Shown here: positions 37,786 to 53,403 of the stretch, in pieces
Numbering within the stretch: position 1 is the stretch's first letter
Layout of the letters: each line of letters starts with the position of its first letter
Assembly (NCBI RefSeq): GCF_056746865.1
Contig: NZ_CM163382.1
DNA length: 64,000 nucleotides
Direction: 5' to 3' (one strand)
Translations under genes and position numbers: made by a program
The notes under the pieces: model-generated
What the model saw: only the letters and a program-made list of their open reading frames with translations
Databases searched by the model: none
What the model was told of the DNA's origin: nothing

Positions 37786-38175
37786 ATGAGACATTACATG
37801 AAATGGTTTGCGGCTATTGCTGTTGTGGGTGCTTTAGCGGGTTGCGCGCGTACTGCGCCAATTGATCAGGTTCACTCAACCGTCAGCGCTGGTCATACCC
37901 AGGAACAAGTGAAAAAAGCGATTCTGAAAGCTGGCGTTGAACGCAAATGGATTATGTCCGAAGCCGGACAAGGCGTAATTAAAGCACGTCAACAGTCACG
38001 CGATCATTCAGCCGAAATTCGCATTAACTACACGGCATCCAGCTACGATATCAATTATGAAAATAGCCAGAACCTACAAGCGTCAGGCGGACAAATTCAT
38101 AAAAACTACAATCGCTGGGTCCGCAATCTCGACAAAGATATTCAACTGAATTTGTCAGCGGGCGCAGATTTATAA
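37786..38175 (+). CDS. Small lipoprotein, first gene of the accessory cluster
   Basis: 129-aa ORF with a lipobox (LAGC); follows ~330 bp of AT-rich sequence and may correspond to the first ape gene (position only). Confidence 0.55.
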   Translation: MRHYMKWFAAIAVVGALAGCARTAPIDQVHSTVSAGHTQEQVKKAILKAGVERKWIMSEAGQGVIKARQQSRDHSAEIRINYTASSYDINYENSQNLQASGGQIHKNYNRWVRNLDKDIQLNLSAGADL

Positions 38176-38234
38176 TTCTTCCTAAAGTCGGGCCGCTGCG
38201 GTCCGATAATAATTTAATTCCCTCTTAACAGGTT

Positions 38235-39302
38235 GTGCCCAACATGTACGAACAGGATTCTCTTAGCGCACTGGATGCGATTACCGAAGCTCAACGCATT
38301 GCCTTTGCCCCTATGCTTTTTCAAACAGCACTCTGCCTACGTAATGCGGGTGTACTTTCATATCTGGATCGGCAAGGCAAACATGGCGCAACGCTGGCTG
38401 ATATCACCGAACATAGCCATATCAACGAATATGCGGCCAGCGTTCTGTTAGATATGGGCTTAAGCGGGCGAATTATTACCTGTAAAGAGGGAATGTATTA
38501 CCTGGCGAAAATCGGTCATTACCTCCTGCATGACACTATGACTCGCGTGAATATGGATTTCACCCAGGATGTCTGTTACCAGGGGCTCTTCTTCCTCGCC
38601 GATTCACTCAATGAAGGAAAACCGTCCGGGTTAAAAGTATTTGGCGACTGGTCGACGATATATCCGGCACTTTCACAATTACCAGACGCCGCTCGTGAAA
38701 GCTGGTTTGCGTTTGATCATTACTATTCAGATGGCGCATTTAACGCCGCACTGCCTTATGTATTCGCCAACAACCCCACAACATTGTACGATGTAGGCGG
38801 CAATACGGGTAAGTGGGCTTTGCGTTGCTGCAAATACAATGAAAACATAGCCGTGACGTTATTAGATCTGCCACAACAAATCGTACTAGCGAAAGAAAAT
38901 ATCGCGAATGCAGGTTTTTCTGATCGCATAGATTTCCATGCGGTGGATATGCTAAGCGATGCCCCATTACCGGGCGAGGCTGATATCTGGTGGATGAGCC
39001 AATTTTTAGACTGTTTTTCACCCGAACAAATAATTAGCATACTCAGCAAAATCGCCAGCGTAATGAAGCCTGGCGCAAAAGTTTGCATCATGGAGTTGTT
39101 CTGGGATGCGCAGCGGTTTGAAGCAGCATCATTTAGCCTGAACGCGTCCTCACTTTATTTTACCTGCATGGCAAACGGTAACAGCCGTTTCTATAGTGCA
39201 GAGAAATTTTACGACTATCTGAATAAAGCAGGATTCCAGGTAGCAGAGCGCCACGATAATTTAGGCGTTGGGCATACACTTTTGATATGCCAAAAGAAAT
39301 AA
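38235..39302 (+). CDS. Class I SAM-dependent methyltransferase (ApeB-like)
   Basis: 355-aa ORF with a glycine-rich SAM-binding motif (LYDVGGNTGKWA) and an acidic-loop motif (LLDLPQ). Confidence 0.75.
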   Translation: MPNMYEQDSLSALDAITEAQRIAFAPMLFQTALCLRNAGVLSYLDRQGKHGATLADITEHSHINEYAASVLLDMGLSGRIITCKEGMYYLAKIGHYLLHDTMTRVNMDFTQDVCYQGLFFLADSLNEGKPSGLKVFGDWSTIYPALSQLPDAARESWFAFDHYYSDGAFNAALPYVFANNPTTLYDVGGNTGKWALRCCKYNENIAVTLLDLPQQIVLAKENIANAGFSDRIDFHAVDMLSDAPLPGEADIWWMSQFLDCFSPEQIISILSKIASVMKPGAKVCIMELFWDAQRFEAASFSLNASSLYFTCMANGNSRFYSAEKFYDYLNKAGFQVAERHDNLGVGHTLLICQKK

Positions 39303-39342
39303 TCGTCACTTAATAATTTTGGTTTACCGCGGGCGCGCGTTG

Positions 39343-40065
39343 ATGAAATTTACATTAAATATTACCGACTGGCAGGCACTGGCGCCTGGACTTAGCGAAG
39401 CGCAGCAATGGCAAGCATGGTCGCGCCAGCCGTGGGCGATTGACCCTGCCGCGCCGTTGGCAAAATTAAGTGAACTGCCAATGATGACCGCCCGCCGCCT
39501 TAGTTCAGGCAGCAAACTGGCTGTTGAATGCGGTCTGGCAATGCTACGCCGCCATCAGCCAGACGCCGTTTTGTATACCAGTCGTCATGGCGAACTGGAG
39601 CGCAATTACCGCATTGTTCATGCACTGGCAACCGAACAGGCGCTTTCTCCGACCGACTTCGCGCTCTCCGTACACAACTCTTCCGTGGGTAACCTGACCA
39701 TTGCGGCCAAACAGCCGATAGTTTCGTCATCGCTTTCTGCTGGTCGCGACACTTTCCAGCAAGGTTTGTGTGAAGTGCTTAGCCTGTTACAAGCGGGATA
39801 CCAGCGCGTGTTGATGGTCGATTTTGACGGTTTTCTGCCCGAGTTTTATCACCCACAACTGCCATCAGAAATGCCGACCTGGCCGTACGCCGTCGCGCTG
39901 GTGATTGAATCTGGCGATGACTGGCAATGTGAAACGCAGTCAGCCATTGCGGGCAATGAAACATCACTGCCGCAAAGCATGTTGTTTTTACAGCATTATT
40001 TACAAAATGCAGACGCATTTTCACTGCCTGGCGAGCGCGTGCAATGGCGCTGGAGCCGCAGATGA
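39343..40065 (+). CDS. Ketosynthase-like protein lacking the active-site Cys (chain-length-factor-like, ApeC-like)
   Basis: About 240 aa resembling the N-terminal half of a KS; the position equivalent to the catalytic Cys reads HNSS rather than CSSS. Confidence 0.65.
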   Translation: MKFTLNITDWQALAPGLSEAQQWQAWSRQPWAIDPAAPLAKLSELPMMTARRLSSGSKLAVECGLAMLRRHQPDAVLYTSRHGELERNYRIVHALATEQALSPTDFALSVHNSSVGNLTIAAKQPIVSSSLSAGRDTFQQGLCEVLSLLQAGYQRVLMVDFDGFLPEFYHPQLPSEMPTWPYAVALVIESGDDWQCETQSAIAGNETSLPQSMLFLQHYLQNADAFSLPGERVQWRWSRR

Positions 40066-40883
40066 GTAAGCTGATGTCACGTCTGGAGTGGACCTGGCGA
40101 CTGGTCATGACCGGGTTATGTTTTGCCCTGTTTGGTCTCGGCGGCCTGCTGCTTTCTGTCGTGTGGTTTAACATATTGTTAGTTTTGGTGTGGGATACTT
40201 CCCGCCGCCGTCGTTTGGCGCGTCGCAGCATTGCCGCCAGTTTTCGCCTGTTTTTAACTGTCGCGAAAGGGCTTGGCGTGCTGGATTATCGTATTGATGG
40301 CGCTGAAATTTTACGTCAGGAACGCGGTTGCCTCGTCGTAGCCAATCATCCCACGCTGATCGATTACGTGCTGCTGGCGTCAGTCATGCCAGAAACTGAC
40401 TGCCTGGTGAAAAGCGCGCTGTTAAAAAATCCTTTTCTTGGCGGCGTCGTGCGGGCGGCAGATTATTTAATCAACAGCGAAGCTGAAACCCTGTTACCCC
40501 GCTGCCAACAGCGACTGGCACAGGGTGACACTATCCTGATTTTCCCCGAAGGCACGCGAACGAAGCCCGGTGAAAAAATGACGCTGCAGCGCGGGGCGGC
40601 GAATATTGCCGTGCGCTGTGCCAGCGATTTACGCATCGTGACGATCGGCTGTAGCGAGCATCTGCTGGATAAACAAAGTAAATGGTATGACGTTCCACCT
40701 GACCGGCCGTTTTTTACGGTTGAAGTCCATGGTCGGGTTGAAATCAATAAATTTTACGATGCAACTTCACAAGAACCGGCGCTGGCAGCAAGGCAGTTAA
40801 ACCGGCATCTTTTGCTTCTATTACAACAAGGTTGTTTACCTCTCTCAGGAATAAATAATGCAAGCGCTTTATCTGGAAATTAA
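40062..40883 (+). CDS. Lysophospholipid (PlsC-family) acyltransferase (ApeD-like)
   Basis: HX4D acyltransferase motif (VANHPTLIDY) plus FPEGTR; N-terminal TM helix; ATGA overlap with the upstream gene. Confidence 0.75.
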   Translation: MSKLMSRLEWTWRLVMTGLCFALFGLGGLLLSVVWFNILLVLVWDTSRRRRLARRSIAASFRLFLTVAKGLGVLDYRIDGAEILRQERGCLVVANHPTLIDYVLLASVMPETDCLVKSALLKNPFLGGVVRAADYLINSEAETLLPRCQQRLAQGDTILIFPEGTRTKPGEKMTLQRGAANIAVRCASDLRIVTIGCSEHLLDKQSKWYDVPPDRPFFTVEVHGRVEINKFYDATSQEPALAARQLNRHLLLLLQQGCLPLSGINNASALSGN

Positions 40884-41115
40884 AAACCTCATCATCAGCA
40901 CCCTCAATCTGGACGAGTTGACTCCTGATGATATCGAGACCGATGCGCCGCTGTTCGGCGACGGTTTAGGACTGGATTCCATCGATGCCCTGGAACTGGG
41001 ACTGGCAGTAAAAAATGAGTACGGCGTGGTGCTCTCAGCCGAAAGCGAAGAGATGCGTCAGCACTTTTTCTCCGTCGCCACTCTGGCCTCTTTCATTGCT
41101 GCGCAACGCGCCTGA
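40858..41115 (+). CDS. Acyl carrier protein 1
   Basis: 85-aa acidic protein with the phosphopantetheine-attachment motif GLGLDSIDALEL. Confidence 0.85.
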   Translation: MQALYLEIKNLIISTLNLDELTPDDIETDAPLFGDGLGLDSIDALELGLAVKNEYGVVLSAESEEMRQHFFSVATLASFIAAQRA

Positions 41116-41126
41116 GGAAAGCCATC

Positions 41127-41378
41127 ATGACAGAACAACAAACCGTCTATCAGGAAGTCTCAGCCCTGCTGGTTAAGCTGTTTGAAATCGATCCGCAGGA
41201 CATCAAACCTGAAGCGCGCCTGTACGAAGATCTGGAACTGGACAGCATCGACGCCGTTGACATGATTGTGCACCTGCAAAAGAAAACCGGTAAGAAAATC
41301 AAGCCGGAAGAGTTTAAAGCAGTGCGCACAGTTCAGGATGTCGTAGAGGCTGTAGAACGCCTGCTACAAGAAGCCTGA
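41127..41378 (+). CDS. Acyl carrier protein 2
   Basis: 83-aa acidic protein with the motif DLELDSIDAVDM. Confidence 0.85.
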   Translation: MTEQQTVYQEVSALLVKLFEIDPQDIKPEARLYEDLELDSIDAVDMIVHLQKKTGKKIKPEEFKAVRTVQDVVEAVERLLQEA

Positions 41379-41382
41379 TCTG

Positions 41383-41964
41383 ATGTCGGGCATTCGCTCG
41401 CTACCGATGATTAAGCTGCTGACTGGATTATTGCTGCTCGCCTGGCCGTTTGTGATTTGGTTTGGCCTGGCGCATAACGGCCTGCACTGGTTGTTGCCGC
41501 TAATAGCGTTGCTGCTATTGTTGCGCCTGCGCCAGACCCGTCGCCGGGCGGGGCCGCTACAAGCCGTCACACAAATCGTCGCTGTCGTGGGCATCGCATT
41601 GTGTGTCGCCAGCTTTCTGTTGAAAACGCACCAGCTACTGCTGTTTTACCCGGTAGTGGTTAACGCGATCATGCTGGCGGTTTTTGGCGGTTCGCTGTGG
41701 TCGACAATGCCGATAGTTGAGCGGCTGGCACGTTTGCAGGAGCCAGACCTCCCGGAAAAGGGCGTGCGCTATACCCGCCGTGTCACGCAAATCTGGTGCG
41801 GCTTTTTCATCATTAACGGCGGAATTGCCCTCTTTACCGCGCTTTATGGCGATATGTCGTTATGGACCGCCTGGAACGGCATGATTGCTTATTTTTTGAT
41901 GGGAACGTTAATGGCAGGTGAATGGCTGGTGCGCCGTCAGGTGATAAAAAGAGATCGCTCATGA
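41383..41964 (+). CDS. Integral membrane protein of unknown function (ApeG-like)
   Basis: 193-aa ORF with about 4 hydrophobic helices. Confidence 0.6.
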   Translation: MSGIRSLPMIKLLTGLLLLAWPFVIWFGLAHNGLHWLLPLIALLLLLRLRQTRRRAGPLQAVTQIVAVVGIALCVASFLLKTHQLLLFYPVVVNAIMLAVFGGSLWSTMPIVERLARLQEPDLPEKGVRYTRRVTQIWCGFFIINGGIALFTALYGDMSLWTAWNGMIAYFLMGTLMAGEWLVRRQVIKRDRS

Positions 41965-43322
41965 AGCAGACCTTACCGCTTGCACGCTGGCTGACTGCGC
42001 CACGCCCTGATGACACGCCCATTGCGTGGCTGGACGAAAGCTCGTGGACACTGGGCGATTTGCGTCACGATGTCGCGCAACTTATCTGCCGCTTGCAGCA
42101 ACAGCCGGGTGAACGCTGGGCGCTGTGCTTTGAGAACAGTTATTTGTTTATCGTTGCCCTGCTTGCCACGCTACACGCCGGAAAAACGCCGGTGCTTCCG
42201 GGGCATAACCGTGTCATCCAGCTTAATGAACAACGTGAACTGTTCGATGGTGTACTTAGCGACAGCGATCTTAACTGGCAAGGTTCATTGCTGTTGGTAG
42301 CAAGTTCCCCACAAGTCGCGACACAATCATTCACCTTTGCCGCTATAGCGCCAGACGCTTATATCGAGCTATTTACCTCCGGTTCTACGGGGCAGCCAAA
42401 GCGGGTAATTAAACCTGTTCATTTGCTGGACCGTGAAGCAGAACTGCTGGCTGAACGATTAGGCGCACGTCTTGCCGGATGTCGTGTCGTCGGTTCCGTA
42501 TTGCCGCAGCATCTGTACGGCCTGACTTTTCGCGTTTTCCTGCCAATGGCGCTGGGATTACCGCTGCACGCCGCCATGCTCTGGTATGTCGAACAGTTTG
42601 CCGCATTGAGTCACCAGCATCGCTATATCTTCATCAGCAGCCCGGCATTTTTGAAACGGCTGGATACCCAGCTTTCTCCGCCGCCCGTTCAGGTGCTTCT
42701 CTCTGCTGGCGGTGAGCTGCCGTGGCAGGACGTAAAACACACCGCGAGCTGGCTGCGCGTCTGGCCTGATGAAATCTACGGCAGCACGGAAACCGGCGTC
42801 ATTGCCTGGCGTTACCGCGAACAAGAGCAACGCCGCTGGCTGCCCTTTCCAGGTATGCACTTCCAGGCCGAAGGTGAAGCATTTCGTCTCTTTTCACCGC
42901 TGATAGCGGAAGATAACGGCCTGTTACTCGATGATCTCTTGCAGTTTAGCCAGGACGGTCAGTTCCATCTGATGGGGCGTCGTGGGCGCATCGTTAAGAT
43001 TGAAGAAAAACGTATTTCTCTGCAGGAAGTAGAACAACGTCTGCTGGCGCTGGACGGCATTCGCGAGGCGGCGGCAGTTCCCGTTACGCGCGGCGGGCGT
43101 CAGAGCATCGGCGTTTTGCTGGTGCTGGATGACGAAGCTCGCCTGCAATGGCAGAACGGCGGCGGGCATAGCCAGGAAATGACCTGGCGGCGATTACTGC
43201 GCCCGACGCTGGAGCCAGTTGCTATTCCGCGTTACTGGCGCGTTATTGATGAAATGCCAGTAAACAGTATGAACAAGCGTGTCTATGCGCAATTACAGGA
43301 GTTATTTCATGAAGCCCCATGA
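41961..43322 (+). CDS. Acyl-CoA/acyl-ACP synthetase (adenylate-forming ligase, ApeH-like)
   Basis: AMP-binding motif YIELFTSGSTGQPKRV; ATG at 41961 overlaps the upstream stop. Confidence 0.8.
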   Translation: MKQTLPLARWLTAPRPDDTPIAWLDESSWTLGDLRHDVAQLICRLQQQPGERWALCFENSYLFIVALLATLHAGKTPVLPGHNRVIQLNEQRELFDGVLSDSDLNWQGSLLLVASSPQVATQSFTFAAIAPDAYIELFTSGSTGQPKRVIKPVHLLDREAELLAERLGARLAGCRVVGSVLPQHLYGLTFRVFLPMALGLPLHAAMLWYVEQFAALSHQHRYIFISSPAFLKRLDTQLSPPPVQVLLSAGGELPWQDVKHTASWLRVWPDEIYGSTETGVIAWRYREQEQRRWLPFPGMHFQAEGEAFRLFSPLIAEDNGLLLDDLLQFSQDGQFHLMGRRGRIVKIEEKRISLQEVEQRLLALDGIREAAAVPVTRGGRQSIGVLLVLDDEARLQWQNGGGHSQEMTWRRLLRPTLEPVAIPRYWRVIDEMPVNSMNKRVYAQLQELFHEAP

Positions 43323-43662
43323 AATCGAGCGCCATCAGGCACAAGCGAATCACCTTGAGATTGTTTTGCATCTCAGGGCAGATCTGTTCTGGTTTCGCGG
43401 CCATTTTGCCGTGCAGCCGTTACTCCCAGGAGTTGCACAAATCGACTGGGCGATGAGCTACGCGCTCACTCTGCTCGCGCCTGGCTGGCGTTTTCACTCT
43501 ATTCAGAACATCAAATTCCAGTCCCCGTTGCTGCCGGACAACCGCGTCACGCTCACGCTTAACTGGCAGGAAGAACGCCAGATTCTGAGCTTTAGCTATC
43601 AGCGTCACGACGGTGACGCCCGCCACACCGCCAGTAGCGGGAAGATCCGCCTATGTCGGTAA
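43309..43662 (+). CDS. Hotdog-fold 3-hydroxyacyl-ACP dehydratase (FabZ/FabA-like)
   Basis: About 117 aa with FRGHFAVQPLLPGVAQID, a typical dehydratase motif. Confidence 0.7.
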   Translation: MKPHEIERHQAQANHLEIVLHLRADLFWFRGHFAVQPLLPGVAQIDWAMSYALTLLAPGWRFHSIQNIKFQSPLLPDNRVTLTLNWQEERQILSFSYQRHDGDARHTASSGKIRLCR

Positions 43663-45329
43663 ACTTTTCTCCCTGCGTGTTGATCCCCTGCTACAACCAC
43701 GGCGCGATGATGCCGGGCGTGCTGGCGCGTCTTAAGCCATTTAATCTGCCCTGTATTGTAGTGGATGACGGCAGCGATGCCGCCACGCAACAGCAACTGG
43801 ATAATCTGGTTGCCGAACAGCCTGGCGTGACCTTAATTCGCCTGGCAGAAAACGCAGGCAAAGGCGCGGCAGTGATGCGTGGCTTACAGGCAGCGGCAGA
43901 CGCGGGCTTCAGCCATGCGGTGCAGGTGGATGCTGACGGTCAGCACGCGATTGAAGACATCCCTAAACTGCTGGCACTCGCTGAACAGCAGCCTGCGGCG
44001 CTGATCTCCGGCCAGCCGATTTACGATGACTCCATCCCCCGCTCACGGCTGTACGGGCGCTGGGTCACCCACGTGTGGGTATGGATCGAAACGCTCTCCC
44101 TGCAACTGAAAGACAGTATGTGCGGCTTTCGCGTTTATCCGGTTGCGCCAACGCTGCAACTGGCAAAATACGCTACCATCGGCAAGCGGATGGATTTTGA
44201 CACCGAAGTGATGGTGCGCCTCTACTGGCAGGGAAATACCAGTTATTTCGTGCCGACCCGCGTCACCTATCCGCTGGACGGGCTTTCGCATTTTGATGCC
44301 CTGAAAGATAACGTCCGCATCTCGCTGATGCACACACGTCTGTTTTTCGGCATGTTGCCGCGTATTCCTTCACTGCTGATGCGCCACTCTTCCAGCCACT
44401 GGGCGCGGCAGAGCGAAGTGAAAGGGTTATGGGGAATGCGCCTGATGCTGCTGGTCTGGCGTCTGCTGGGAAGAACTGCGTTTACCGCGCTGCTTTACCC
44501 GGTGGTGGGCGTCTACTGGCTCACCGCTGCTCGTGCACGTAAAGCGTCGCAAGACTGGCTCGCCCGTGTGCGCCAACAACAACCACAGGCAGCAAAACTC
44601 AACAGCTATCAGCATTTTCTACGTTTCGGCAACGCCATGCTCGACAAAATCGCCAGCTGGCGCGGCGAGCTGCAACTCGGGCGTGATGTGCTGTTTGCAC
44701 CAGGCGCAGAAGCGGCACTTAACGTCAGCGATCCGCGCGGCAAATTGCTGCTGGCCTCGCATCTTGGCGATGTGGAAGTGTGCCGGGCGCTGGCAAAAAT
44801 TCAGGGCTACAAAACCATTAACGCGCTGGTGTTTAGCGAAAACGCCCAACGCTTTAAACAGATAATGCAGGAGATGGCCCCGCAGGCAGGCATCAACCTG
44901 CTCCCGGTAACAGATATCGGCCCGGAAACCGCCATCCTGCTGAAAGAGAAGCTGGATAACGGCGAATGGGTGGCGATTGTCGGTGACCGCATCGCCGTCA
45001 ACCCGCAACGCGGCGGCGACTGGCGCGTCTGCTGGAGTCCGTTTATGGGCCAGCCTGCGCCTTTCCCACAGGGGCCGTTTATTCTTGCGTCTATTTTGCG
45101 CTGCCCGGTGAATCTGATTTTCGCCCTGCGCCAGCACGGCAAGCTGCATATTCACTGCGAAACCTTTGCCGACCCGCTGCTGTTGCCGCGTGGCGAACGC
45201 CAGCAGGCGCTGCAAAACGCTATCGATCATTACGCCGCGCGTCTGGAACATTACGCGCTCCAGTCGCCCCTCGACTGGTTTAATTTTTTCGATTTCTGGC
45301 AACTGCCGGAAGTCCAGGACAAGGAGTAA
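43653..45329 (+). CDS. Bifunctional protein: N-terminal GT2 glycosyltransferase fused to a C-terminal LpxL/HtrB-like lipid acyltransferase domain (ApeJ-like)
   Basis: 558-aa ORF; N-terminus CVLIPCYNHG...VVDDGSDA (GT-A fold); C-terminal half has LASHLGDVEV and IVGDR motifs resembling lipid A late acyltransferases. Confidence 0.7.
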   Translation: MSVNFSPCVLIPCYNHGAMMPGVLARLKPFNLPCIVVDDGSDAATQQQLDNLVAEQPGVTLIRLAENAGKGAAVMRGLQAAADAGFSHAVQVDADGQHAIEDIPKLLALAEQQPAALISGQPIYDDSIPRSRLYGRWVTHVWVWIETLSLQLKDSMCGFRVYPVAPTLQLAKYATIGKRMDFDTEVMVRLYWQGNTSYFVPTRVTYPLDGLSHFDALKDNVRISLMHTRLFFGMLPRIPSLLMRHSSSHWARQSEVKGLWGMRLMLLVWRLLGRTAFTALLYPVVGVYWLTAARARKASQDWLARVRQQQPQAAKLNSYQHFLRFGNAMLDKIASWRGELQLGRDVLFAPGAEAALNVSDPRGKLLLASHLGDVEVCRALAKIQGYKTINALVFSENAQRFKQIMQEMAPQAGINLLPVTDIGPETAILLKEKLDNGEWVAIVGDRIAVNPQRGGDWRVCWSPFMGQPAPFPQGPFILASILRCPVNLIFALRQHGKLHIHCETFADPLLLPRGERQQALQNAIDHYAARLEHYALQSPLDWFNFFDFWQLPEVQDKE

Positions 45330-45755: not shown

Positions 45756-46357
45756 AATTTTTACCACTGCTGGCGCTGCTGATTAGCCCGTTTGTGAGCG
45801 CCCTGAACCTGGACGATCTTCAGCAACGCTTTACCGAACAGCCGGTGATCCGCGCTCATTTCGATCAAACCCGGACGATTAAAGATCTGCCGCAGCCGCT
45901 ACGATCTCAGGGCCAGATGTTGATCGCCCGCGACCAGGGGCTGTTGTGGGATCAAACCTCACCATTTCCCATGCAACTATTGCTGGACGATAAACGCATG
46001 GTGCAGGTGATCAACGGTCAGCCGCCGCAAATCATCACGGCAGAAAATAACCCGCAGATGTTCCAGTTTAACCACCTGCTGCGCGCGCTGTTCCAGGCCG
46101 ATCGCAAAGTGCTGGAACAAAATTTCCGCGTCGAATTTGCTGACAAAGGCGAAGGCCGCTGGACACTGCGCCTGACGCCGACCACCACGCCGCTGGATAA
46201 AATTTTCAACACCATCGATCTCGCCGGGCAAACCTATCTGGAGAGCATTCAGCTTAATGATAAACAGGGCGATCGCACCGATATCGCTCTTACCCAACAT
46301 CAACTGACGCCAGCGCAACTGACCGATGACGAACGCCAACGTTTTGCCGCCCAGTAA
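45752..46357 (+). CDS. LolA-like outer-membrane lipoprotein carrier protein
   Basis: 201-aa ORF with a signal peptide (MKFLPLLALLISPFVSA); LolA-like length and composition. Confidence 0.65.
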   Translation: MKFLPLLALLISPFVSALNLDDLQQRFTEQPVIRAHFDQTRTIKDLPQPLRSQGQMLIARDQGLLWDQTSPFPMQLLLDDKRMVQVINGQPPQIITAENNPQMFQFNHLLRALFQADRKVLEQNFRVEFADKGEGRWTLRLTPTTTPLDKIFNTIDLAGQTYLESIQLNDKQGDRTDIALTQHQLTPAQLTDDERQRFAAQ

Positions 46358-48644
46358 ACGCCCGGCGCTGTTATGGGGGATCGTCTGCCTGGTCATGGCG
46401 GCGGCGTTGCTGATCCTGTTGCCGCAATCACGACTGAACAGTAGCGTGCTGGCTATGTTACCCAAACAGGCGATGGGCGATATTCCTCCAGCGCTGAATG
46501 ACGGCTTTATGCAGCGTCTGGACCGCCAACTGGTGTGGCTGGTCAGCCCCGGTAAAGAGGCTAATCCCAGGGTGGCTCAGGAGTGGCTGACGCTGCTGCA
46601 AAAATCCGCTGCGCTCGGCGACGTTAAAGGGCCAATGGATGCCGCCAGCCAGCAGGCGTGGGGAGCGTTTTTCTGGCAGCACCGCAACGGCCTGGTTGAC
46701 CCCGACACCCGCGCGCGCCTGCAAAACGGCGGCGAAGCGCAGGCGCAGTGGATCCTCTCCCAGCTTTATTCTGCGTTCTCCGGGGTAAGCGGTAAGGAGC
46801 TGCAAAACGATCCGCTGATGTTAATGCGTGGCTCGCAGCTGGCGATGGCGAAAAACGGCCAGCGTTTGCGGCTGATGGACGGCTGGCTGGTGACGCAGGA
46901 TCCCCAGGGCAACTACTGGTATCTGCTGCACGGCGAACTGGCGGGATCGTCGTTTGATATGCAGCAAACCCACCAGCTCATCACGACCCTGAATACGCTG
47001 GAAAAGGATCTGAAAACGCGTTACCCGCAGGCGCAGTTGCTCTCGCGCGGCACGGTGTTTTACAGCGATTACGCCAGCCAACAGGCGAAGCAGGATATCT
47101 CCAACCTGGGCGTGGCAACGCTGCTGGGGGTGATATTACTGATTGTGGCGGTGTTCCGCTCTTTACGCCCATTGCTGCTTTGCGTGATTTCCATCGGCAT
47201 CGGCGCGCTGGCGGGAACGGTCGCCACCTTGTTGATTTTCGGCGAATTACACCTGATGACGCTGGTGATGAGCATGAGCGTTATCGGCATTTCCGCTGAC
47301 TACACGCTCTATTACCTCACCGAGCGGATGGTGCACGGCAATGACGTTTCGCCGTGGCAAAGCCTGGCGAAAGTGCGCAATGCCCTGCTGCTGGCGCTGC
47401 TCACCACCGTGGCGGCGTATCTGATTATGATGCTCGCCCCCTTCCCCGGCATTCGCCAGATGGCGATTTTTGCCGCCGTCGGGTTGAGCGCCTCCTGTCT
47501 GACCGTCCTGTTCTGGCATCCGTGGCTGTGCCGTGGCCTGCCGGTGCGTCCGGTTCCGGCGATGGCGCTGATGCTGCGCTGGCTGGCTGCGTGGCGGCGT
47601 AATAAAAAACTGTCGCTGGGTCTGCCCGTCGCGCTGGCGCTGTTTTCGCTGGCGGGGATGTCAATGCTGCGCGTCGACGACGATATCTCGCAGTTACAGG
47701 CGCTACCGCAGCATATTCTGGCCCAGGAGAAAGCCATTACCGCCCTGACCGGACAAAGCGTCGATCAAAAATGGTTTGTAGTTTACGGCGACTCTCCACA
47801 GCAAACATTGCGGCGGCTGGAGAAATTTACCGCCTCGCTGGAGAATGCGAAAAAAGAGGGGCTTATCAGCAACTACCGCACCATTCCGCTGAACTCCCTG
47901 GCGCGGCAGGAGGAAGATTTACATCTGCTGAAAACGGCTGCCCCGACAGTAACAAAAGCACTGCAAAATGCCGGGCTGGCGGCAGTGAATCCGGATCTCA
48001 ACGCCATGCCAGTGAAGGTCGATGAATGGCTGGCAAGCCCCGCCAGTGAAGGCTGGCGTCTGCTGTGGCTGACGCTGAAAAACGGCGAAAGCGGCGTACT
48101 GGTGCCGGTTGAAGGGGTTAAAAGTAGCGCGTTGTTGCAGGAAATCGCCAGCGATTACCCTGGCGGCATTGCCTGGGTTGATCGCAAAAGCACCTTTGAT
48201 GAGTTGTTCGCACTTTACCGCTACGTCTTAACCGGTTTGTTGCTGGTGGCGCTGGCGGTGATTGCCTGCGGCGCAGTGGCCCGCCTCGGCTGGCGCAAAG
48301 GGCTTATCAGCCTGGTGCCTTCGGTACTTTCGCTGGGCTGCGGTCTGGCAGTGCTGGCGATGAGCGGGCAGGCGGTGAATCTCTTTTCGCTACTGGCGCT
48401 GGTGCTGGTGCTTGGCATCGGCATCAATTACACGCTGTTTTTCAGTAATCCGCGCGGTACACCGTTAACTTCCCTACTGGCGATCACGCTGGCAATGCTC
48501 ACCACCTTGCTGGCGCTGGGAATGCTGGTATTCAGCGCCACCCAGGCCATCAGCAGTTTTGGCATTGTGCTGGTGAGCGGTATTTTCACCGCCTTCCTGC
48601 TTTCGCCGCTGGCTATGCCCGATAAAAAGAGAACAAAAAAATGA
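46326..48644 (+). CDS. MMPL/RND-superfamily exporter (start codon uncertain)
   Basis: 772-aa ORF with two blocks of about 6 TM helices separated by soluble domains. Confidence 0.75.
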   Translation: MTNANVLPPSKRPALLWGIVCLVMAAALLILLPQSRLNSSVLAMLPKQAMGDIPPALNDGFMQRLDRQLVWLVSPGKEANPRVAQEWLTLLQKSAALGDVKGPMDAASQQAWGAFFWQHRNGLVDPDTRARLQNGGEAQAQWILSQLYSAFSGVSGKELQNDPLMLMRGSQLAMAKNGQRLRLMDGWLVTQDPQGNYWYLLHGELAGSSFDMQQTHQLITTLNTLEKDLKTRYPQAQLLSRGTVFYSDYASQQAKQDISNLGVATLLGVILLIVAVFRSLRPLLLCVISIGIGALAGTVATLLIFGELHLMTLVMSMSVIGISADYTLYYLTERMVHGNDVSPWQSLAKVRNALLLALLTTVAAYLIMMLAPFPGIRQMAIFAAVGLSASCLTVLFWHPWLCRGLPVRPVPAMALMLRWLAAWRRNKKLSLGLPVALALFSLAGMSMLRVDDDISQLQALPQHILAQEKAITALTGQSVDQKWFVVYGDSPQQTLRRLEKFTASLENAKKEGLISNYRTIPLNSLARQEEDLHLLKTAAPTVTKALQNAGLAAVNPDLNAMPVKVDEWLASPASEGWRLLWLTLKNGESGVLVPVEGVKSSALLQEIASDYPGGIAWVDRKSTFDELFALYRYVLTGLLLVALAVIACGAVARLGWRKGLISLVPSVLSLGCGLAVLAMSGQAVNLFSLLALVLVLGIGINYTLFFSNPRGTPLTSLLAITLAMLTTLLALGMLVFSATQAISSFGIVLVSGIFTAFLLSPLAMPDKKRTKK

Positions 48645-49225
48645 TCAAACCCACATTCTGGCGAGCGTTCGCCCTGACCGCTACGCTTATCCTCACCGGC
48701 TGTAGCCACTCGCAACCGGAACAGGAAGGTCGCCCACAGGCGTGGCTGCAACCTGGCACGCGCATCACGCTGCCGGCACCAGGGATTTCGCCCGCCGTTA
48801 ATTCCCAGCAACTATTGAGCGGCAGCTTCAACGGCAAAACCCAGTCTCTGCTAGTGATGCTTAACGCCGACGACCAGAAAATCACCCTTGCCGGGCTGTC
48901 GTCGGTCGGCATTCGTCTGTTTCTGGTGACCTACGATGCGCAAGGGCTACGCGCCGAGCAATCCATCGTCGTCCCACAGTTGCCGCCCGCAAGTCAGGTG
49001 CTGGCTGACGTGATGCTTAGCCACTGGCCGATTAGCGCCTGGCAACCGCAACTCCCCGCTGGATGGACGCTTCGCGACAACGGTGACAAACGCGAACTGC
49101 GTAACGCCAGCGGCAAACTGGTCACGGAAATCACCTATCTGAATCGCCAGGGAAAACGCGTGCCAATCAGCATTGAACAGCATGTCTTTAAATACCACAT
49201 CACCATTCAATATTTAGGTGACTGA
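48641..49225 (+). CDS. Lipoprotein (DUF3261-like, possibly LolB-like)
   Basis: 194-aa ORF with a lipobox (LTGC). Confidence 0.65.
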   Translation: MIKPTFWRAFALTATLILTGCSHSQPEQEGRPQAWLQPGTRITLPAPGISPAVNSQQLLSGSFNGKTQSLLVMLNADDQKITLAGLSSVGIRLFLVTYDAQGLRAEQSIVVPQLPPASQVLADVMLSHWPISAWQPQLPAGWTLRDNGDKRELRNASGKLVTEITYLNRQGKRVPISIEQHVFKYHITIQYLGD

Positions 49226-50396
49226 TATGATTTACATTTCCGCCGTCGGCATGATCAACGCCCTGGGAAATAACCTTGACGATATCGCAGCCAACCTGAC
49301 TCGCGGTGTCGCTCCCGGCATGCGCCCGCGCGCAGGCTGGTTGCAGGGGCATCCGCAGGCGGTCCTGGCTGGCGTGGATGGCGAGCTTCCGGTTATCCCG
49401 GAAAAATTCGCTGCGCACCGCTCGCGCAACAATCAGATCCTGCTGGCGGCGCTGGCGCAGATCCAGCCGCAGGTTGATGACGCTATTGCGAAATATGGCC
49501 GCGAGCGCATCGCGATTGTGCTTGGCACCAGCACCTCCGGCCTGCATGAAGGCGACACGCACGTTAACCTGCGCACCCACGGGCAGCCGAGCACCACGTG
49601 GCACTATGCACAACAAGAGCTCGGCGATCCGTCGCGTTTTCTCAGCCACTGGCTGGCGCTCGACGGCCCAGCTTATACCCTTTCAACCGCCTGCTCCTCC
49701 AGTGCCAGAGCGATGATCAGCGGGCGCAGGCTTATCGAGGCGGGGCTGGTCGATGCCGCCATTGTGGGTGGTGCAGACACCCTGAGCCGAATGCCGATTA
49801 ACGGTTTTCACAGCCTCGAATCGCTCTCGCCAACCTTATGTCAGCCGTTTGGTCGTGACCGCGCGGGCATCACCATTGGCGAAGGTGCGGGGCTGATGCT
49901 GTTGACCCGCGAACCGCAGCCCATCGCCTTGCTGGGCGTCGGTGAATCGAGCGACGCTTATCATATTTCGGCCCCGCATCCACAGGGCGAAGGCGCAATT
50001 CGCGCCATTAACCAGGCGCTGGCTGATGCGCAGCTTACGCCGGATGAGGTGGGCTATATCAACCTGCACGGCACCGCCACACAACTCAACGACCAGATTG
50101 AATCGATGGTGGTAAACGCCCTGTTTGGCGAACGCGTACCGTGCAGCTCCACCAAACATTTGACCGGACACACGCTGGGCGCAGCGGGCATTACCGAAGC
50201 GGCAATCAGTATGTTGATCTTAGAGCGTGATTTACCGCTGCCCGCTCAGGACTTCAGCCTGTCGCCGCGCGATCCCACGCTGCCACCGTGCGGCATTATC
50301 GAACAACCACAGCCGCTGGCACGTCCGGTGATCCTGTCCAATTCCTTCGCCTTTGGCGGCAATAACGCCAGCATTCTGCTCGGGAGGGTTTCGTGA
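49218..50396 (+). CDS. Beta-ketoacyl-ACP synthase (KS, ApeO-like)
   Basis: Active-site Cys (LSTACSSSARAM), HGTAT, and NSFAFGGNNASIL. Confidence 0.85.
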   Translation: MTDMIYISAVGMINALGNNLDDIAANLTRGVAPGMRPRAGWLQGHPQAVLAGVDGELPVIPEKFAAHRSRNNQILLAALAQIQPQVDDAIAKYGRERIAIVLGTSTSGLHEGDTHVNLRTHGQPSTTWHYAQQELGDPSRFLSHWLALDGPAYTLSTACSSSARAMISGRRLIEAGLVDAAIVGGADTLSRMPINGFHSLESLSPTLCQPFGRDRAGITIGEGAGLMLLTREPQPIALLGVGESSDAYHISAPHPQGEGAIRAINQALADAQLTPDEVGYINLHGTATQLNDQIESMVVNALFGERVPCSSTKHLTGHTLGAAGITEAAISMLILERDLPLPAQDFSLSPRDPTLPPCGIIEQPQPLARPVILSNSFAFGGNNASILLGRVS

Positions 50397-50857
50397 GCCA
50401 CTATTTATCCCCCGGCGCTTATCTGCCCCACGACGCGCCCATGTTACTGCTGGAAGAAGTGGTGAGCGTCAGCGATGACAGCGCGGTGTGCCGTGTAACG
50501 GTCTCGCCCAGTGGCGTACTGGCACCGTTTCTCGACCCGGACGGCAATCTCCCTGGCTGGTTTGCCCTTGAATTGATGGCGCAAACCGTCGGCGTCTGGT
50601 CTGGCTGGCATCGCCACCAGCAGGGCAAAAACAGTATTGAGTTAGGGATGGTACTGGGCGCACGTGAATTGCTTTGCGCCGCTGGCATTCTGCCCGCAGG
50701 CCAGACGCTGACCATTACCGTCAAACTCCTGATGCAAGACGATCGCTTCGGCAGTTTTGAGTGCAGCATCAACAACGGCACGGCAACGGGCCGCATTAAC
50801 ACCTTCCAGCCGACCGCGGAAGAACTTACCACCCTGTTTCAACAAGGAGCGTCCTGA
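50393..50857 (+). CDS. Hotdog-fold dehydratase (FabA/FabZ-like, ApeP-like)
   Basis: 154-aa ORF overlapping the neighbouring genes; hotdog-like length and motif spacing. Confidence 0.6.
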   Translation: MSHYLSPGAYLPHDAPMLLLEEVVSVSDDSAVCRVTVSPSGVLAPFLDPDGNLPGWFALELMAQTVGVWSGWHRHQQGKNSIELGMVLGARELLCAAGILPAGQTLTITVKLLMQDDRFGSFECSINNGTATGRINTFQPTAEELTTLFQQGAS

Positions 50858-51588
50858 TGAGTCGTTCAGTTCTGGTTACTGGTGCCAGCAAAGGCATTGG
50901 TCGCGCCATCGCCTGCCAACTGGCGGCAGACGGCTTTAATATTGGCGTTCACTATCACCGTGACGCCACAGGCGCTCAGGAAACGCTAAATGCCATTGTC
51001 GCCAACGGGGGTAACGGGCGTTTGCTCAGTTTCGACGTCGCAAACCGCGAACAGTGTCGGGAAGTGCTGGAGCACGAAATCGCGCAAAACGGTGCCTGGT
51101 ACGGCGTGGTTAGTAACGCCGGGATCGCCCGCGATGCCGCTTTTCCGGCTTTAAGCGATGACGACTGGGATGCGGTGATCCACACCAATCTCGACAGTTT
51201 CTACAACGTTATTCAGCCGTGCATTATGCCGATGATCGGCACACGCCAGGGTGGACGCATCATCACGCTGTCCTCGGTTTCCGGCGTGATGGGCAATCGC
51301 GGACAGGTGAACTACAGCGCTGCCAAAGCCGGAATTATCGGCGCAACAAAAGCACTGGCTATCGAACTCGCGAAGCGCAAAATCACCGTCAACTGCATCG
51401 CGCCGGGGCTTATTGATACCGGGATGATCGAAATGGAAGAGAGCGCCCTGAAAGAGGCAATGTCGATGATCCCCATGAAACGCATGGGCCAGGCGGAAGA
51501 AGTTGCCGGGCTTGCCAGCTATTTAATGTCTGATATTGCGGGTTACGTCACCCGCCAGGTTATTTCCATCAACGGAGGGATGTTATGA
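50857..51588 (+). CDS. 3-oxoacyl-ACP reductase (SDR, FabG-like)
   Basis: VLVTGASKGIGRAIA Rossmann motif and YSAAKAG catalytic motif. Confidence 0.88.
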   Translation: MSRSVLVTGASKGIGRAIACQLAADGFNIGVHYHRDATGAQETLNAIVANGGNGRLLSFDVANREQCREVLEHEIAQNGAWYGVVSNAGIARDAAFPALSDDDWDAVIHTNLDSFYNVIQPCIMPMIGTRQGGRIITLSSVSGVMGNRGQVNYSAAKAGIIGATKALAIELAKRKITVNCIAPGLIDTGMIEMEESALKEAMSMIPMKRMGQAEEVAGLASYLMSDIAGYVTRQVISINGGML

Positions 51589-52814
51589 CACGTCGCGTAG
51601 TGATTACAGGAATGGGCGGCGTGACTGCCTTTGGTGAAAACTGGCAGGACGTTTCCGCGCGTCTGCTGGCGTATGAGAATGCAGTGCGCAAAATGCCGGA
51701 GTGGCAGGTCTACGATGGTCTGCACACCCTGCTTGGCGCGCCTGTTGATGATTTCACGCTACCGGAGCACTACACCCGCAAGCGTATCCGTGCGATGGGC
51801 CGCGTGTCGCAAATGTCGACCCGTGCCAGCGAGCTGGCGTTAGAGCAGGCAGGATTGATTGGCGATCCGATATTAACCAGCGGCGAAACGGGCATTGCGT
51901 ACGGTTCATCGACCGGCAGTACCGGTCCGGTGAGCGAATTTGCCACCATGCTGACGGAAAAGCACACCAATAACATCACCGGCACCACCTATGTACAGAT
52001 GATGCCGCACACCACCGCCGTTAATACCGGTCTGTTTTTCGGCCTGCGCGGGCGGGTGATCCCGACCTCCAGCGCCTGTACCTCCGGCAGCCAGGCGATC
52101 GGTTATGCGTGGGAAGCCATTCGCCACGGTTATCAAACGGTGATGGTTGCTGGTGGTGCCGAAGAGTTATGCCCTTCAGAAGCAGCGGTATTTGATACAC
52201 TTTTCGCCACCAGCCAGCACAATGATGCGCCGAAAACCACACCTTCACCGTTCGATGAAAACCGCGACGGGCTGGTGATTGGTGAAGGCGCAGGTACGCT
52301 GATTCTTGAAGAACTGGAGCACGCCAAAGCGCGCGGCGCGACCATTTACGGTGAAATCGTCGGCTTTGCGACTAACTGCGACGCGGCACATATTACCCAG
52401 CCTCAGCGTGAGACCATGCAATATTGTATGGAAAAATCGTTAAAAATCGCCGGGTTAAGTGCAAGTGATATCGGCTATATTTCGGCGCATGGTACGGCGA
52501 CCGATCGTGGTGATATGGCAGAAAGTCTGGCGACAGCAACCATTTACGGTGATAATGTGCCGCTCTCCTCGCTGAAAAGTTATTTTGGTCATACGCTTGG
52601 TGCCTGTGGCGCGCTCGAAGCCTGGATGAGTCTGCAAATGATGCGCGAAGGTTGGTTTGCGCCTACGCTAAACCTGAATAAACCAGACCCGAACTGTGGC
52701 GCGCTGGATTACATCATGCATGAAGCCCGCAAGGTTGATTGTGAGTTTTTGCAGAGTAACAACTTTGCCTTTGGCGGCATTAATACATCCATCATCATTA
52801 AACGTTGGCCCTGA
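51585..52814 (+). CDS. Beta-ketoacyl-ACP synthase (KS, ApeR-like)
   Basis: Active-site Cys (SSACTSGSQAIG), HGTAT and GHTLGACG. Confidence 0.88.
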   Translation: MTRRVVITGMGGVTAFGENWQDVSARLLAYENAVRKMPEWQVYDGLHTLLGAPVDDFTLPEHYTRKRIRAMGRVSQMSTRASELALEQAGLIGDPILTSGETGIAYGSSTGSTGPVSEFATMLTEKHTNNITGTTYVQMMPHTTAVNTGLFFGLRGRVIPTSSACTSGSQAIGYAWEAIRHGYQTVMVAGGAEELCPSEAAVFDTLFATSQHNDAPKTTPSPFDENRDGLVIGEGAGTLILEELEHAKARGATIYGEIVGFATNCDAAHITQPQRETMQYCMEKSLKIAGLSASDIGYISAHGTATDRGDMAESLATATIYGDNVPLSSLKSYFGHTLGACGALEAWMSLQMMREGWFAPTLNLNKPDPNCGALDYIMHEARKVDCEFLQSNNFAFGGINTSIIIKRWP

Positions 52815-52815
52815 T

Positions 52816-53403
52816 ATGTATCGGATAGTTCTGGGGAAAGTTTCGACCTTAAGCGCAGCTCCACTGCCACCGGCTTTACGCGATCAAGCACCGCAAGGTC
52901 CACGACGCGAACGCTGGCTGGCGGGGCGTGCATTACTTTCGCACACGCTTTCCCCGCTACCGGAGATCATCTATGGCGAACAAGGCAAACCGGCATTCGC
53001 GCCGGAAACGCCGCTATGGTTCAACTTAAGCCATAGCGGTGACGATATCGCCCTGCTGTTGAGCGATGAAGGCGAAGTCGGCTGCGATATCGAAGTGATT
53101 CGCCCGCGCGCCAACTGGCGCTGGCTGGCGAACGCCGTGTTCAGCCTCGGGGAACACGCTGAGATGGACGCCGTGCATCCCGATCAGCAACTGGAAATGT
53201 TCTGGCGCATCTGGACGCGCAAAGAAGCCATCGTTAAACAGCGTGGCGGCAGCGCCTGGCAAATCGTCAGCGTAGACAGCACCTATCACTCATCACTGTC
53301 AGTCAGCCATTGTCAGCTAGAAAATTTAAGCCTGGCGATCTGCACCCCTACCCCCTTTACGCTCTCCGCCGACAGTGTGCAATGGATCGATTCAGTTAAC
53401 TGA
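52816..53403 (+). CDS. acpT: 4'-phosphopantetheinyl transferase (holo-ACP synthase 2)
   Basis: Internal start MYRIVLGKVSTLSAAPLPPALRD gives 195 aa; the ATG lies 1 bp after the stop of the upstream KS gene. Confidence 0.88.
   Translation: MYRIVLGKVSTLSAAPLPPALRDQAPQGPRRERWLAGRALLSHTLSPLPEIIYGEQGKPAFAPETPLWFNLSHSGDDIALLLSDEGEVGCDIEVIRPRANWRWLANAVFSLGEHAEMDAVHPDQQLEMFWRIWTRKEAIVKQRGGSAWQIVSVDSTYHSSLSVSHCQLENLSLAICTPTPFTLSADSVQWIDSVN

Follow-up and report, generated by a model that had tools for sequence, protein, structure and literature searches.

The 64,000-nt window analysed here very probably contains the known chromosomal aryl-polyene (APE) lipid operon of E. coli in its 'O-island 138' form, along with AcpT as the cognate phosphopantetheinyl transferase, and the genes point to functions in biosynthesis, attachment and export. 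The cluster is real and intact, but ordinary: it is the already described E. coli APE cluster (yellow outer-membrane lipid pigment), and the analysis established which genes it holds and in what order, that they are intact, what catalytic motifs and orthologues they have, and the cluster's place in the genome, its spread across the population and its evolutionary polarity. According to both the ORF listing and the annotation that RefSeq gives for genomes with 100% identity, 18 co-oriented, mostly overlapping and intact genes occupy positions 37786-52814 (RefSeq start 37798) of the plus strand, on which all features described below also lie. Overlaps occur at 11 of the 18 junctions, the remaining ones being gaps of 1-68 nt, and a gene-by-gene check revealed no internal stops. 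The initial annotation had described an 18-gene cluster between the flanking genes yhhT and acpT. This count and placement hold for the 18 genes, whereas the end coordinate given for them, 53403, takes in acpT itself (52816-53403; NF007676 equivalog, 395 bits against a cutoff of 174), which encodes a 4'-phosphopantetheinyl transferase. As seen in the junction sequence, the acpT ATG sits one nucleotide beyond the apeR stop codon that ends the cluster, and acpT would therefore functionally be the 19th gene of the unit; the two genes are likewise coupled by a 1-nt spacer in Citrobacter. According to De Lay and Cronan (2006; cited in PMC8253772), the ApeE and ApeF homologues of O157 are activated by AcpT. 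At the other end, the AT-rich region between yhhT and apeA (37407-37785, GC 0.43-0.44) presumably serves as promoter or regulatory region; it holds one sigma-70-like match (37592-37620), a number no higher than expected by chance.

For the ketosynthases, the closest solved structures are those of APE enzymes themselves (ApeO-ApeC, 6QSP and 7F28; ApeR, 7F27 and 4EWG). The elongating ketosynthase ApeO (49227-50396; NF006618, 558 bits against a cutoff of 407) carries the motifs TACSSS, HGTAT and GHTLGAAG and matches 6qsp_A with E=2e-176. It pairs with ApeC (39343-40065; PF13723, Ketoacyl-synt_2, E=4e-67), a chain-length-factor partner that lacks the active-site Cys and matches the X. doucetiae ApeC (6qsp_B) over its full length (E=6e-93). 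ApeR (51585-52814; NF006587, 777 bits against 470) is a FabB-like homodimeric ketosynthase with Cys165; in its alignment to 7f27_A (E=7e-158) the aryl-stacking pair, whose roles are described in PMC8358021, is kept as Tyr136/Phe203, equivalent to Tyr135/Phe202 of AbApeR. The ketoreductase ApeQ (50857-51588) is of the FabG2 type with a Ser-Tyr-Lys triad (TIGR01831, 474 bits against 339). ApeI (43309-43662), one of the alleles that diverge from the CFT073 copy, is a dehydratase subunit that resembles FabZ and carries an HFxxxPxxPG motif, and ApeP (50393-50857), with weak FabZ matches, is the second hotdog dehydratase subunit; their Citrobacter orthologues match the Pfam families ApeI-like PF22818 and ApeP-like PF22817, respectively, and RefSeq names apeP in strain 11 an 'ApeP family dehydratase'. 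The remaining synthesis genes encode a SAM-dependent methyltransferase for the aryl head group (apeB, 38244-39302; NF053543 FlxJ-family, 475 bits; DVGGNTG motif), two tandem acyl carrier proteins with a DSI serine in each (apeE, 40858-41115, GLDSID, NF006617, 90 bits against 70; apeF, 41127-41378, ELDSID, NF003757, 146 bits against 65), an adenylate-forming enzyme that loads the aryl starter onto the carrier protein (apeH, 41961-43322, again a divergent allele), and a YbgC/4HBT-type thioesterase (apeK, 45333-45755).

Attachment and export are represented by seven genes. ApeD (40062-40883; TIGR00530 domain, E=4e-15) is a lysophospholipid acyltransferase of the PlsC type, in which HX4D and FPEGTR motifs are present, and the 558-aa ApeJ (43653-45329) begins with a GT2 glycosyltransferase domain (PF00535, E=9e-20, residues 8-130). 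Its C-terminal half, putatively an acyltransferase, had no match in the Pfam search, one marginal NCBIfam match (NF005919, PatA-type acyltransferase, E=0.001, 18 bits) and an HX4E-like motif, HLGDVE. ApeL (45752-46357) is a LolA-like periplasmic carrier (TIGR00547, E=1.5e-16; flexirubin LolA2, E=6.5e-15), ApeM (46326-48644) an RND/MMPL (HAE3-like) transporter with TIGR00921 and HpnN matches that RefSeq calls 'MMPL family transporter', and ApeN (48641-49225) a DUF3261 lipoprotein described as LolB-like (PF11659, E=8e-39; lipobox LTGC). ApeG (41383-41964) belongs, by its RefSeq name, to the COG4648 family and is a polytopic membrane protein, and apeA (37786-38175, a divergent allele) encodes a small lipoprotein with the lipobox LAGC; Pfam and NCBIfam searches found no family for either protein. 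A stem-loop directly 3' of the apeA stop codon (38187-38207) is conserved in four divergent loci by alignment and folds, and in ESL0689 a G-C pair has become A-U through a compensatory change. Nearly all of the parts named in the initial annotation were thus recovered: the methyltransferase, the Cys-less ketosynthase-like partner, two active ketosynthases (TACSSS and SSACTSG, both with Cys-His-His), the FabG-like reductase, two hotdog dehydratases, tandem carrier proteins, an adenylating ligase, the thioesterase, the PlsC-like acyltransferase and the LolA-like/MMPL/lipoprotein export set. Of the proposed fusion of a GT2 domain to an LpxL-like acyltransferase, the GT2 half stands, while the LpxL-like half is weakly supported and not confirmed by sequence.

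The pathway steps are inferred from orthologous systems in CFT073, Xenorhabdus and Acinetobacter (PMC8253772; 10.1101/2020.12.19.423268; PMC8358021), as are the product, its expression and its physiological role in this strain. AcpT would convert ApeE and ApeF to their holo forms, and ApeH would adenylate UbiC-derived 4-hydroxybenzoate, the starter loaded in vitro by the Xenorhabdus enzyme among the studied homologues (as cited in PMC8253772), and load it onto ApeE without a CoA intermediate. The ApeO-ApeC ketosynthase/chain-length-factor heterodimer, aided by ApeR, would then add malonyl units to the starter, each addition being followed by reduction through ApeQ and dehydration through ApeI/ApeP, with no enoyl reduction, to give a conjugated hexaene. 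ApeB probably methylates the phenol ring, and ApeK may edit or release intermediates. ApeD and bifunctional ApeJ, in the roles taken from 10.1101/2020.12.19.423268, would attach the chromophore to a glycerol-phosphate-sugar lipid anchor, and ApeG, ApeM, ApeL, ApeN and the lipoprotein ApeA may move the product to the outer membrane. These export steps are conjecture, because ApeG and ApeA have no recognisable family; deletion of apeA is reported to leave the pigment in place and the APE lipid incomplete (PMC8253772). In the outer membrane the product would quench reactive oxygen species and promote biofilm formation. Under laboratory conditions, native APE clusters show weak expression or stay silent.

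An experimentally characterised relative is the CFT073 cluster APE_Ec (c1204-c1186, apeA-R; MIBiG BGC0000836), the only E. coli cluster with a solved product, which yields an aryl polyene upon heterologous expression (PMC8253772). Content and order had been predicted to match the ape family, and indeed the window has the same 18 genes and overlaps in exactly the apeA-apeR order of CFT073 (PMC8253772 table and CFT073 record), with 14 of the 18 proteins 94-100% identical to their counterparts (ApeK 100%). As a comparator CFT073 offers the same cluster, but its copy lies at another site, in an integrase-bearing island adjoining cdiBA remnants and without an adjacent phosphopantetheinyl transferase, its apeA upstream region is unrelated to that of the window (~30% alignment identity), and ApeA (65% protein identity), ApeH (67%), ApeI (72%) and ApeG (82%) are divergent. 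The divergence is confined to two sharply bounded blocks with 54-75% nucleotide identity and saturated dS, one comprising apeA and the 5' end of apeB, the other the 3' end of apeG with apeH and apeI, whereas the cluster elsewhere is ~96% identical. In apeB, dS is 2.3 over codons 1-85 and 0.13 over the remainder; in apeG it is 0.29 over codons 1-140 and 3.0 from codon 141 to the end. Judged by their sequences, the two blocks are anciently divergent alleles relative to CFT073. In every backbone gene dN is far below dS which, together with the conservation of the ApeH alleles described below, indicates purifying selection.

Because ApeH, ApeI, the N-terminal third of ApeB and ApeA/ApeG are so anciently divergent, the yhhT-acpT allele could have the same architecture and yet make a product chemically unlike that of CFT073, in starter, methylation or chain length. 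The sharp blocks within an otherwise near-identical cluster, the discrete allele classes in the population (566 versus 259 genomes) and the fact that starter selection is the ApeH step (PMC8253772) fit such a difference. We nevertheless consider it unlikely: of the 176 columns at least 95% conserved among 118 Enterobacterales ApeH homologues, the two alleles keep 174 and 171, and of the 150 differences between them only 7 lie in these columns. Since both keep nearly all family-conserved residues, the two ApeH alleles likely share the same chemistry. Moreover, 67-77% identity between alleles is the usual ortholog distance between enterobacterial genera, the aryl pocket residues of ApeR are unchanged, and the more distant Xenorhabdus is reported to make the same 4-hydroxy-3-methylphenyl hexaene chromophore as CFT073. 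The X. doucetiae cluster has the same gene set (apeA/B-R), and its ApeO and ApeC in 6QSP match the window proteins full-length, although it belongs to another genus and shows much lower identity; it is the only system in which the full APEL lipid (GalNAc-phosphate-glycerol plus a conjugated C26:5 acyl chain) has been solved. That the same cluster also makes this conjugated non-aryl chain, proposed to be on ApeF (10.1101/2020.12.19.423268), lends something to the pre-2014 reading of O-island 138 as a dedicated FAS-like system that would modify membrane lipids or lipid A with an unusual acyl chain of its own making, one without an aryl group, as do the core enzymes, all FAS II paralogues (ketosynthases, FabG-like reductase, FabZ-like dehydratases and ACPs), and the PlsC-type and possibly LpxL-type acyltransferases. 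We give this reading hardly any credence, in view of the aryl polyene obtained from the closely similar CFT073 cluster, the aryl-acid-type adenylating enzyme and the ApeR aryl-stacking residues. Unlike type II FAS, the window cluster is without FabD, FabH and enoyl reductase, so that its products must stay polyunsaturated, and it has a chain-length factor, an aryl-acid loader, a methyltransferase, lipid attachment enzymes and a dedicated export set. Flexirubin and xanthomonadin clusters share KS/CLF, KR, DH, ACP, methyltransferase and LolA-like parts with the window and are unlike it in gene order and attachment chemistry, and the window proteins score below the flexirubin equivalog cutoffs (FlxJ 475/560, FlxB 266/340, LolA2 55/125); the cluster is related to these subfamilies without belonging to them.

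The APE operon of the window is a strain-variable accessory locus, as had been proposed: among 5,426 complete E. coli genomes, 820 have the cluster at one site or another and ~577 (~11%) have it at the yhhT-acpT site. Exact-match genomes carry a cluster with 100% identity to the window allele, and the class with at least 99% identity comprises 138 genomes. O-island 138 of O157:H7 (Sakai ECs_4324-4341 plus AcpT) has the same 18 genes, site and allele type and aligns to the whole window cluster in one piece with 96.5% nucleotide identity, leaving only ~3.5% allelic differences. The Sakai genes have already been labelled as APE cluster BGC0000836 by antiSMASH (PMC9205054), in line with the earlier view that the family is not new. 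Likewise as anticipated, the cluster is absent from K-12, where only 54 nt separate yhhT and acpT (left breakpoint after 37402). The initial annotation had, however, the polarity of this difference wrong in calling the cluster inserted. That some E. coli acquired a genomic island horizontally at the yhhT-acpT site would fit the patchy distribution, the GC content of the cluster (55.5% versus 51.9% in the rest of the window, with a GC gradient and an AT-rich 5' end) and the second, clearly island-borne copy in CFT073-like strains. This is nonetheless very unlikely, as a Citrobacter contig has the identical dcrB-yhhT-apeA..R-acpT arrangement, and cluster and flanks show the same dS to Citrobacter (ape genes 0.76-2.2, flanking genes 1.2-1.3). 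In addition, a 19-nt remnant of the apeR 3' end survives in K-12 immediately before acpT, and its codons are those of the conserved ApeR C-terminus, even in CFT073 with its different downstream context. No integrase, IS element, tRNA, other mobility gene or flanking direct repeat was found at the locus.

Together, the Citrobacter synteny, the equal dS, the apeR remnant and the lack of mobility genes and repeats argue for loss by deletion, as De Lay and Cronan (2006) proposed for the locus. The evidence thus favours a cluster that was ancestral to the Escherichia-Citrobacter lineage at yhhT-acpT and that ~89% of sequenced E. coli, including K-12, appear to have deleted. In K-12 and most other strains, this deletion would have orphaned acpT.

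The region between the end of yhhT (37406) and the start of nikA (53514) holds 19 consecutive plus-strand ORFs with no internal stop codons, and the RefSeq annotation of genomes that are 100% identical gives the same gene layout. Eighteen of these, by both the ORF listing and RefSeq, are the ape genes, apeA to apeR, which run from 37786/37798 to 52814 on the plus strand. The nineteenth, at 52816–53403 on the same strand, is acpT, which scores 395 bits with the NCBIfam AcpT equivalog model (cutoff 174). Neighboring genes overlap at 11 of 18 junctions, the widest gaps being 68 nt (apeA-apeB) and 40 nt (apeB-apeC), and a single base separates the apeR stop codon from the acpT ATG, an arrangement common to the window and a Citrobacter contig. 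The initial annotation had placed an aryl-polyene-like cluster of 18 genes at 37786–53403, between yhhT and acpT; the location stands, but these coordinates take in acpT itself.

The locus is a known aryl-polyene (APE) cluster of the O-island 138 type. Gene order is identical to that of c1204–c1186 in E. coli CFT073 (apeA-apeR table, PMC8253772), the window proteins have the same lengths as those of CFT073 except for ApeH (453 against 452 aa), and 14 of the 18 are 94–100% identical to their CFT073 counterparts. O157:H7 carries the identical 18-gene set between yhhT and acpT, aligning in a single piece at 96.5% identity, and the Sakai homologue, ECs_4324–4341, has already been assigned to APE cluster BGC0000836 (PMC9205054). 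Order, identity and matches to APE structures thus support the initial reading as an ape cluster, and the Sakai assignment bears out the remark that it is not new as a family; the family, this E. coli locus and its partnership with AcpT had all been described before. The possibility that K-12 has the same genes at this position was checked as well: K-12 lacks the ape locus, with only 54 nt separating yhhT and acpT. We rejected a canonical type II fatty acid synthesis (fab) or lipid A locus, as, the FabG2-specific model aside, every protein falls short of the fab and lpx equivalog cutoffs, and K-12 is without the locus.

Profile searches and motifs reproduced the list of functions first read from the DNA, with weak support for the "LpxL-like" half of the GT2 fusion. 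ApeO and ApeR are ketosynthases with Cys-His-His active sites (NF006618/PRK09185, 558 bits, and NF006587/PRK09116, 777 bits, both above cutoff); the motifs TACSSS and SSACTSG are present, together with both His residues in each enzyme. Their closest PDB matches are 6qsp_A, 7f28_B, 7f27_A and 4ewg_A, where the entries for APE enzymes were identified from PMC8358021. Over their full length, ApeO and ApeC align with the heterodimer 6QSP from Xenorhabdus doucetiae (E = 2e-176 and 6e-93), and ApeR matches A. baumannii ApeR (7F27) and a Paraburkholderia homologue (4EWG). The proposed aryl-stacking pair of AbApeR, Tyr135 and Phe202, is conserved as Tyr136 and Phe203 in the window protein. ApeC (240 aa) is a chain-length factor without the catalytic Cys (PF13723 Ketoacyl-synt_2, E = 4e-67; 6qsp_B, E = 6e-93 over residues 1–239), and its RefSeq name is likewise "chain length factor". 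The tandem acyl carrier proteins ApeE and ApeF both exceed curated cutoffs and each have a DSI serine, and the ketoreductase ApeQ scores 474 bits with the FabG2 model (cutoff 339). ApeI and ApeP form a hotdog dehydratase pair, both with weak FabZ matches, and the Pfam ApeI-like and ApeP-like families match their syntenic Citrobacter orthologues.

Among the proteins related to lipid assembly and export, profile and Pfam searches identify ApeL as LolA-like, ApeM as an RND/MMPL (HAE3) transporter and ApeN as a DUF3261 lipoprotein of 194 aa; the ApeM profile matches lie below equivalog cutoffs, and the family-level call agrees with RefSeq. The profile searches also give a FlxJ-family methyltransferase, a PlsC-type acyltransferase, an adenylate-forming enzyme, a GT2 domain and a YbgC-type thioesterase, and further motifs were seen in the acyltransferase (HX4D/FPEGTR), the methyltransferase (DVGGNTG) and the first and fourteenth proteins (lipoboxes). 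ApeH belongs to the adenylate-forming family by profile search, and alignment shows that it keeps nearly all of the positions conserved in the family. The C-terminal half of ApeJ, a protein called a glycosyl/acyltransferase in the literature (PMC8253772; 10.1101/2020.12.19.423268), gave a marginal PatA-type match (NF005919, E = 0.001, 18 bits against a cutoff of 209) and has an HX4E-like motif, HLGDVE; it had no Pfam match, and a PDB sequence search of it returned DARPin noise only. Pfam and NCBIfam searches yielded nothing usable for ApeG and ApeA.

From orthology and the literature, a pathway can be proposed for the window cluster. AcpT activates the O157:H7 homologues of ApeE and ApeF (De Lay and Cronan, 2006, as cited in PMC8253772), and by analogy AcpT would phosphopantetheinylate ApeE and ApeF here. 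ApeH would then load 4-hydroxybenzoate directly onto the ACP (after PMC8253772), and ApeO-ApeC would elongate the chain, with ApeR raising throughput (after PMC8358021). Reduction by ApeQ and dehydration by ApeI/ApeP, with no enoyl reductase, would leave a conjugated hexaene, the ring of which may be methylated by ApeB. The lipid would be built by ApeD and ApeJ; the APE lipid of Xenorhabdus is a GalNAc-phosphate-glycerol that bears the APE chromophore and two acyl chains, one conjugated (C26:5) and one saturated (10.1101/2020.12.19.423268). Export to the outer membrane is proposed to involve ApeG, ApeM, ApeL, ApeN and ApeA (PMC8253772; 10.1101/2020.12.19.423268). By analogy, the product of the window cluster is most likely a cell-bound yellow aryl-polyene lipid. 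The APE product shields uropathogenic E. coli CFT073 from oxidative stress and favors its biofilm formation; ape expression in CFT073 increases modestly with H2O2 and at 37°C.

The cluster had initially been described as "inserted" between yhhT and acpT. This was not borne out, given the synteny with Citrobacter, the matching dS, a remnant of apeR in K-12 and the lack of mobility features; the evidence instead favors a locus that is ancestral at this position and was lost in K-12. A Citrobacter amalonaticus-type contig carries dcrB-yhhT-apeA..R-acpT, and dS between it and the window is 1.2–1.3 in yhhT, dcrB and acpT and 0.76–2.2 in the ape genes, a similarity of flanks and cluster that is consistent with joint vertical descent. 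On the right side, K-12 retains CATTAAACGTTGGCCCTGA, the final 19 nt of apeR; these nucleotides encode the conserved ApeR C-terminus, which even CFT073 has, where other sequence comes next. On the left, the breakpoint relative to K-12 lies beyond 37402 in the window, and the yhhT stop codon is not the same in both. With up to three mismatches allowed, the 34 nt of filler between yhhT and the apeR remnant in the K-12 locus (L002:2908-2941) matched nothing in the window, and a 16-nt core of it had no exact match in any other fetched locus. In every empty-site genome sampled across the ranking, the junction spans 2,644–2,646 bp. The evidence thus favors a deletion that left a 19-nt apeR scar as the origin of the "orphan" acpT of K-12.

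We also considered whether the window copy is a mobile genomic island. This was rejected, as no integrase, IS element, transposase, tRNA target or flanking direct repeats were found in or beside the locus, the repeat scan giving short chance matches only. In contrast, the island bearing the CFT073 copy has a tyrosine integrase. Of 5,426 complete E. coli genomes, 820 have at least 80% of the cluster; approximately 577 of the 5,426 carry it at yhhT-acpT, and about 250 hold a copy of 90–95% identity at another site, which in CFT073, Nissle 1917, clone D i14 and strain 11 adjoins cdiBA genes or their remnants. A few genomes (e.g., the matches H40 and H58) show two cluster matches, apparently one at yhhT-acpT and one on the island; if so, recombination between the two would be possible. 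In the canine urinary isolate Eco_23-3511, which is otherwise 100% identical to the window, IS1B interrupts apeA (L001:3299-4453, in the locus of that strain) and the rest of the cluster is intact.

Sliding identity against CFT073 revealed a mosaic, with two sharply bounded blocks at 54–75% and approximately 96% elsewhere. The first block, at 37750–38500, covers apeA and codons 1–85 of apeB, and the second, at approximately 41800–43600, covers the 3' end of apeG, apeH and apeI. At the protein level, identity to CFT073 is 65% for ApeA, 82% for ApeG, 67% for ApeH and 72% for ApeI, and dS is 0.03–0.23 in the backbone genes outside the blocks and saturated within them. The sequences upstream of apeA are unrelated in the window and CFT073, and the apeH-apeI alleles fall into two discrete classes in E. 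coli (566 against 259 genomes). Within the blocks, the window groups with Citrobacter and CFT073 with "Enterobacteriaceae bacterium ESL0689": for window ApeA and ApeH, the syntenic orthologues of Citrobacter (84 and 77%) are closer relatives than the CFT073 proteins, and the CFT073 alleles are close to those of ESL0689 (ApeA 89%, ApeH 87%, ApeI 84%, ApeJ 92%, ApeO 95%), whose cluster is CFT073-like over its full length. A mosaic of the reverse polarity, in which the window cluster would be the recombinant and CFT073 the coherent one, draws on this uniform relationship of the CFT073-type cluster to ESL0689 (84–95%) and keeps some residual plausibility; however, the window cluster for its part relates uniformly to its syntenic counterpart in Citrobacter, with dS at the level seen in the flanking genes. 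The evidence favors the yhhT-acpT copy as the ancestral form, with its cognate PPTase still coupled as the 19th gene.

Judging from the alignments, the mosaic probably does not change the chemistry. Across 118 other ApeH homologues, 176 alignment columns reach at least 95% conservation; the window allele matches 174 of these and the CFT073 allele 171, and just 7 of the 150 differences between the two fall on conserved columns. Identities of 67–77% are ordinary for ApeH between enterobacterial genera, and the more distant Xenorhabdus cluster yields the same chromophore as CFT073. We therefore regard a different product as highly improbable. E. coli keeps ancient APE cassettes (the lipoprotein ApeA with the ApeB N-terminus; the ApeG C-terminus with ApeH and ApeI) in two allelic forms, one belonging to the ancestral yhhT-acpT locus and the other to a mobile island. 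We consider it very unlikely that the two forms specify different products or surface properties, for example in the aryl starter or the ApeA surface; if they did, findings made in CFT073 would not hold for O157:H7-type strains.

The 5' end of the cluster holds two features of possible structure. Directly 3' of the apeA stop codon, a GC-rich stem-loop (38187–38207) is kept in the window, CFT073, Citrobacter and ESL0689 despite divergence around it, with a compensatory G-C to A-U change in ESL0689, and could act in the apeA-apeB gap as an attenuator or an mRNA-stabilizing hairpin. A 17-nt inverted repeat (16/17 complementary) that at first seemed non-random has its arms at 38217–38233 and 38478–38494, 244 nt apart and bracketing the apeB start; the edge of the first divergent block falls at the right arm. 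We rejected it as a conserved RNA structure, as conservation of the left arm does not extend to CFT073, Citrobacter or ESL0689. The repeat is probably specific to the lineage or due to chance. Upstream of apeA, promoter-like matches were no more frequent than in shuffled sequence, and we therefore claim no promoter there. Antisense to apeJ/apeK, a minus-strand ORF of 382 aa (44619–45767) most likely arises from the high GC3 (0.65–0.67) of these genes and is not a real gene.

Elsewhere in the window, a second strain-variable block lies downstream of nikR, at approximately 59034–64000 as mapped from NZ_CP053662.1, a collinear record. Its genes are for a GntR regulator, galactitol-like PTS IIA/IIB/IIC components, an FGGY kinase, HPr and a class II aldolase. 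Of 5,426 complete E. coli genomes, 1,637 have this block, UTI89 and O157:H7 among them. The small RNA RyhB (4387–4451, minus strand; Rfam RF00057, 83 bits) is at its usual E. coli core-genome location, and a hypothetical protein of 102 aa (WP_000385056.1) maps, from the same record, to approximately 32720–33028 on the minus strand, between tusA and zntA.

APE clusters have been described as the most broadly distributed family of biosynthetic gene clusters in bacteria. The window locus adds no new kind of system to this family, and its mosaic is a minor practical caveat, not a discovery. E. coli APE genetics and chemistry to date all come from the CFT073 island copy, which has a different, anciently diverged loading module and a different presumed promoter region than the O157:H7/window copy, and extrapolating regulation or product structure between the CFT073 and yhhT-acpT copies therefore calls for checking first.
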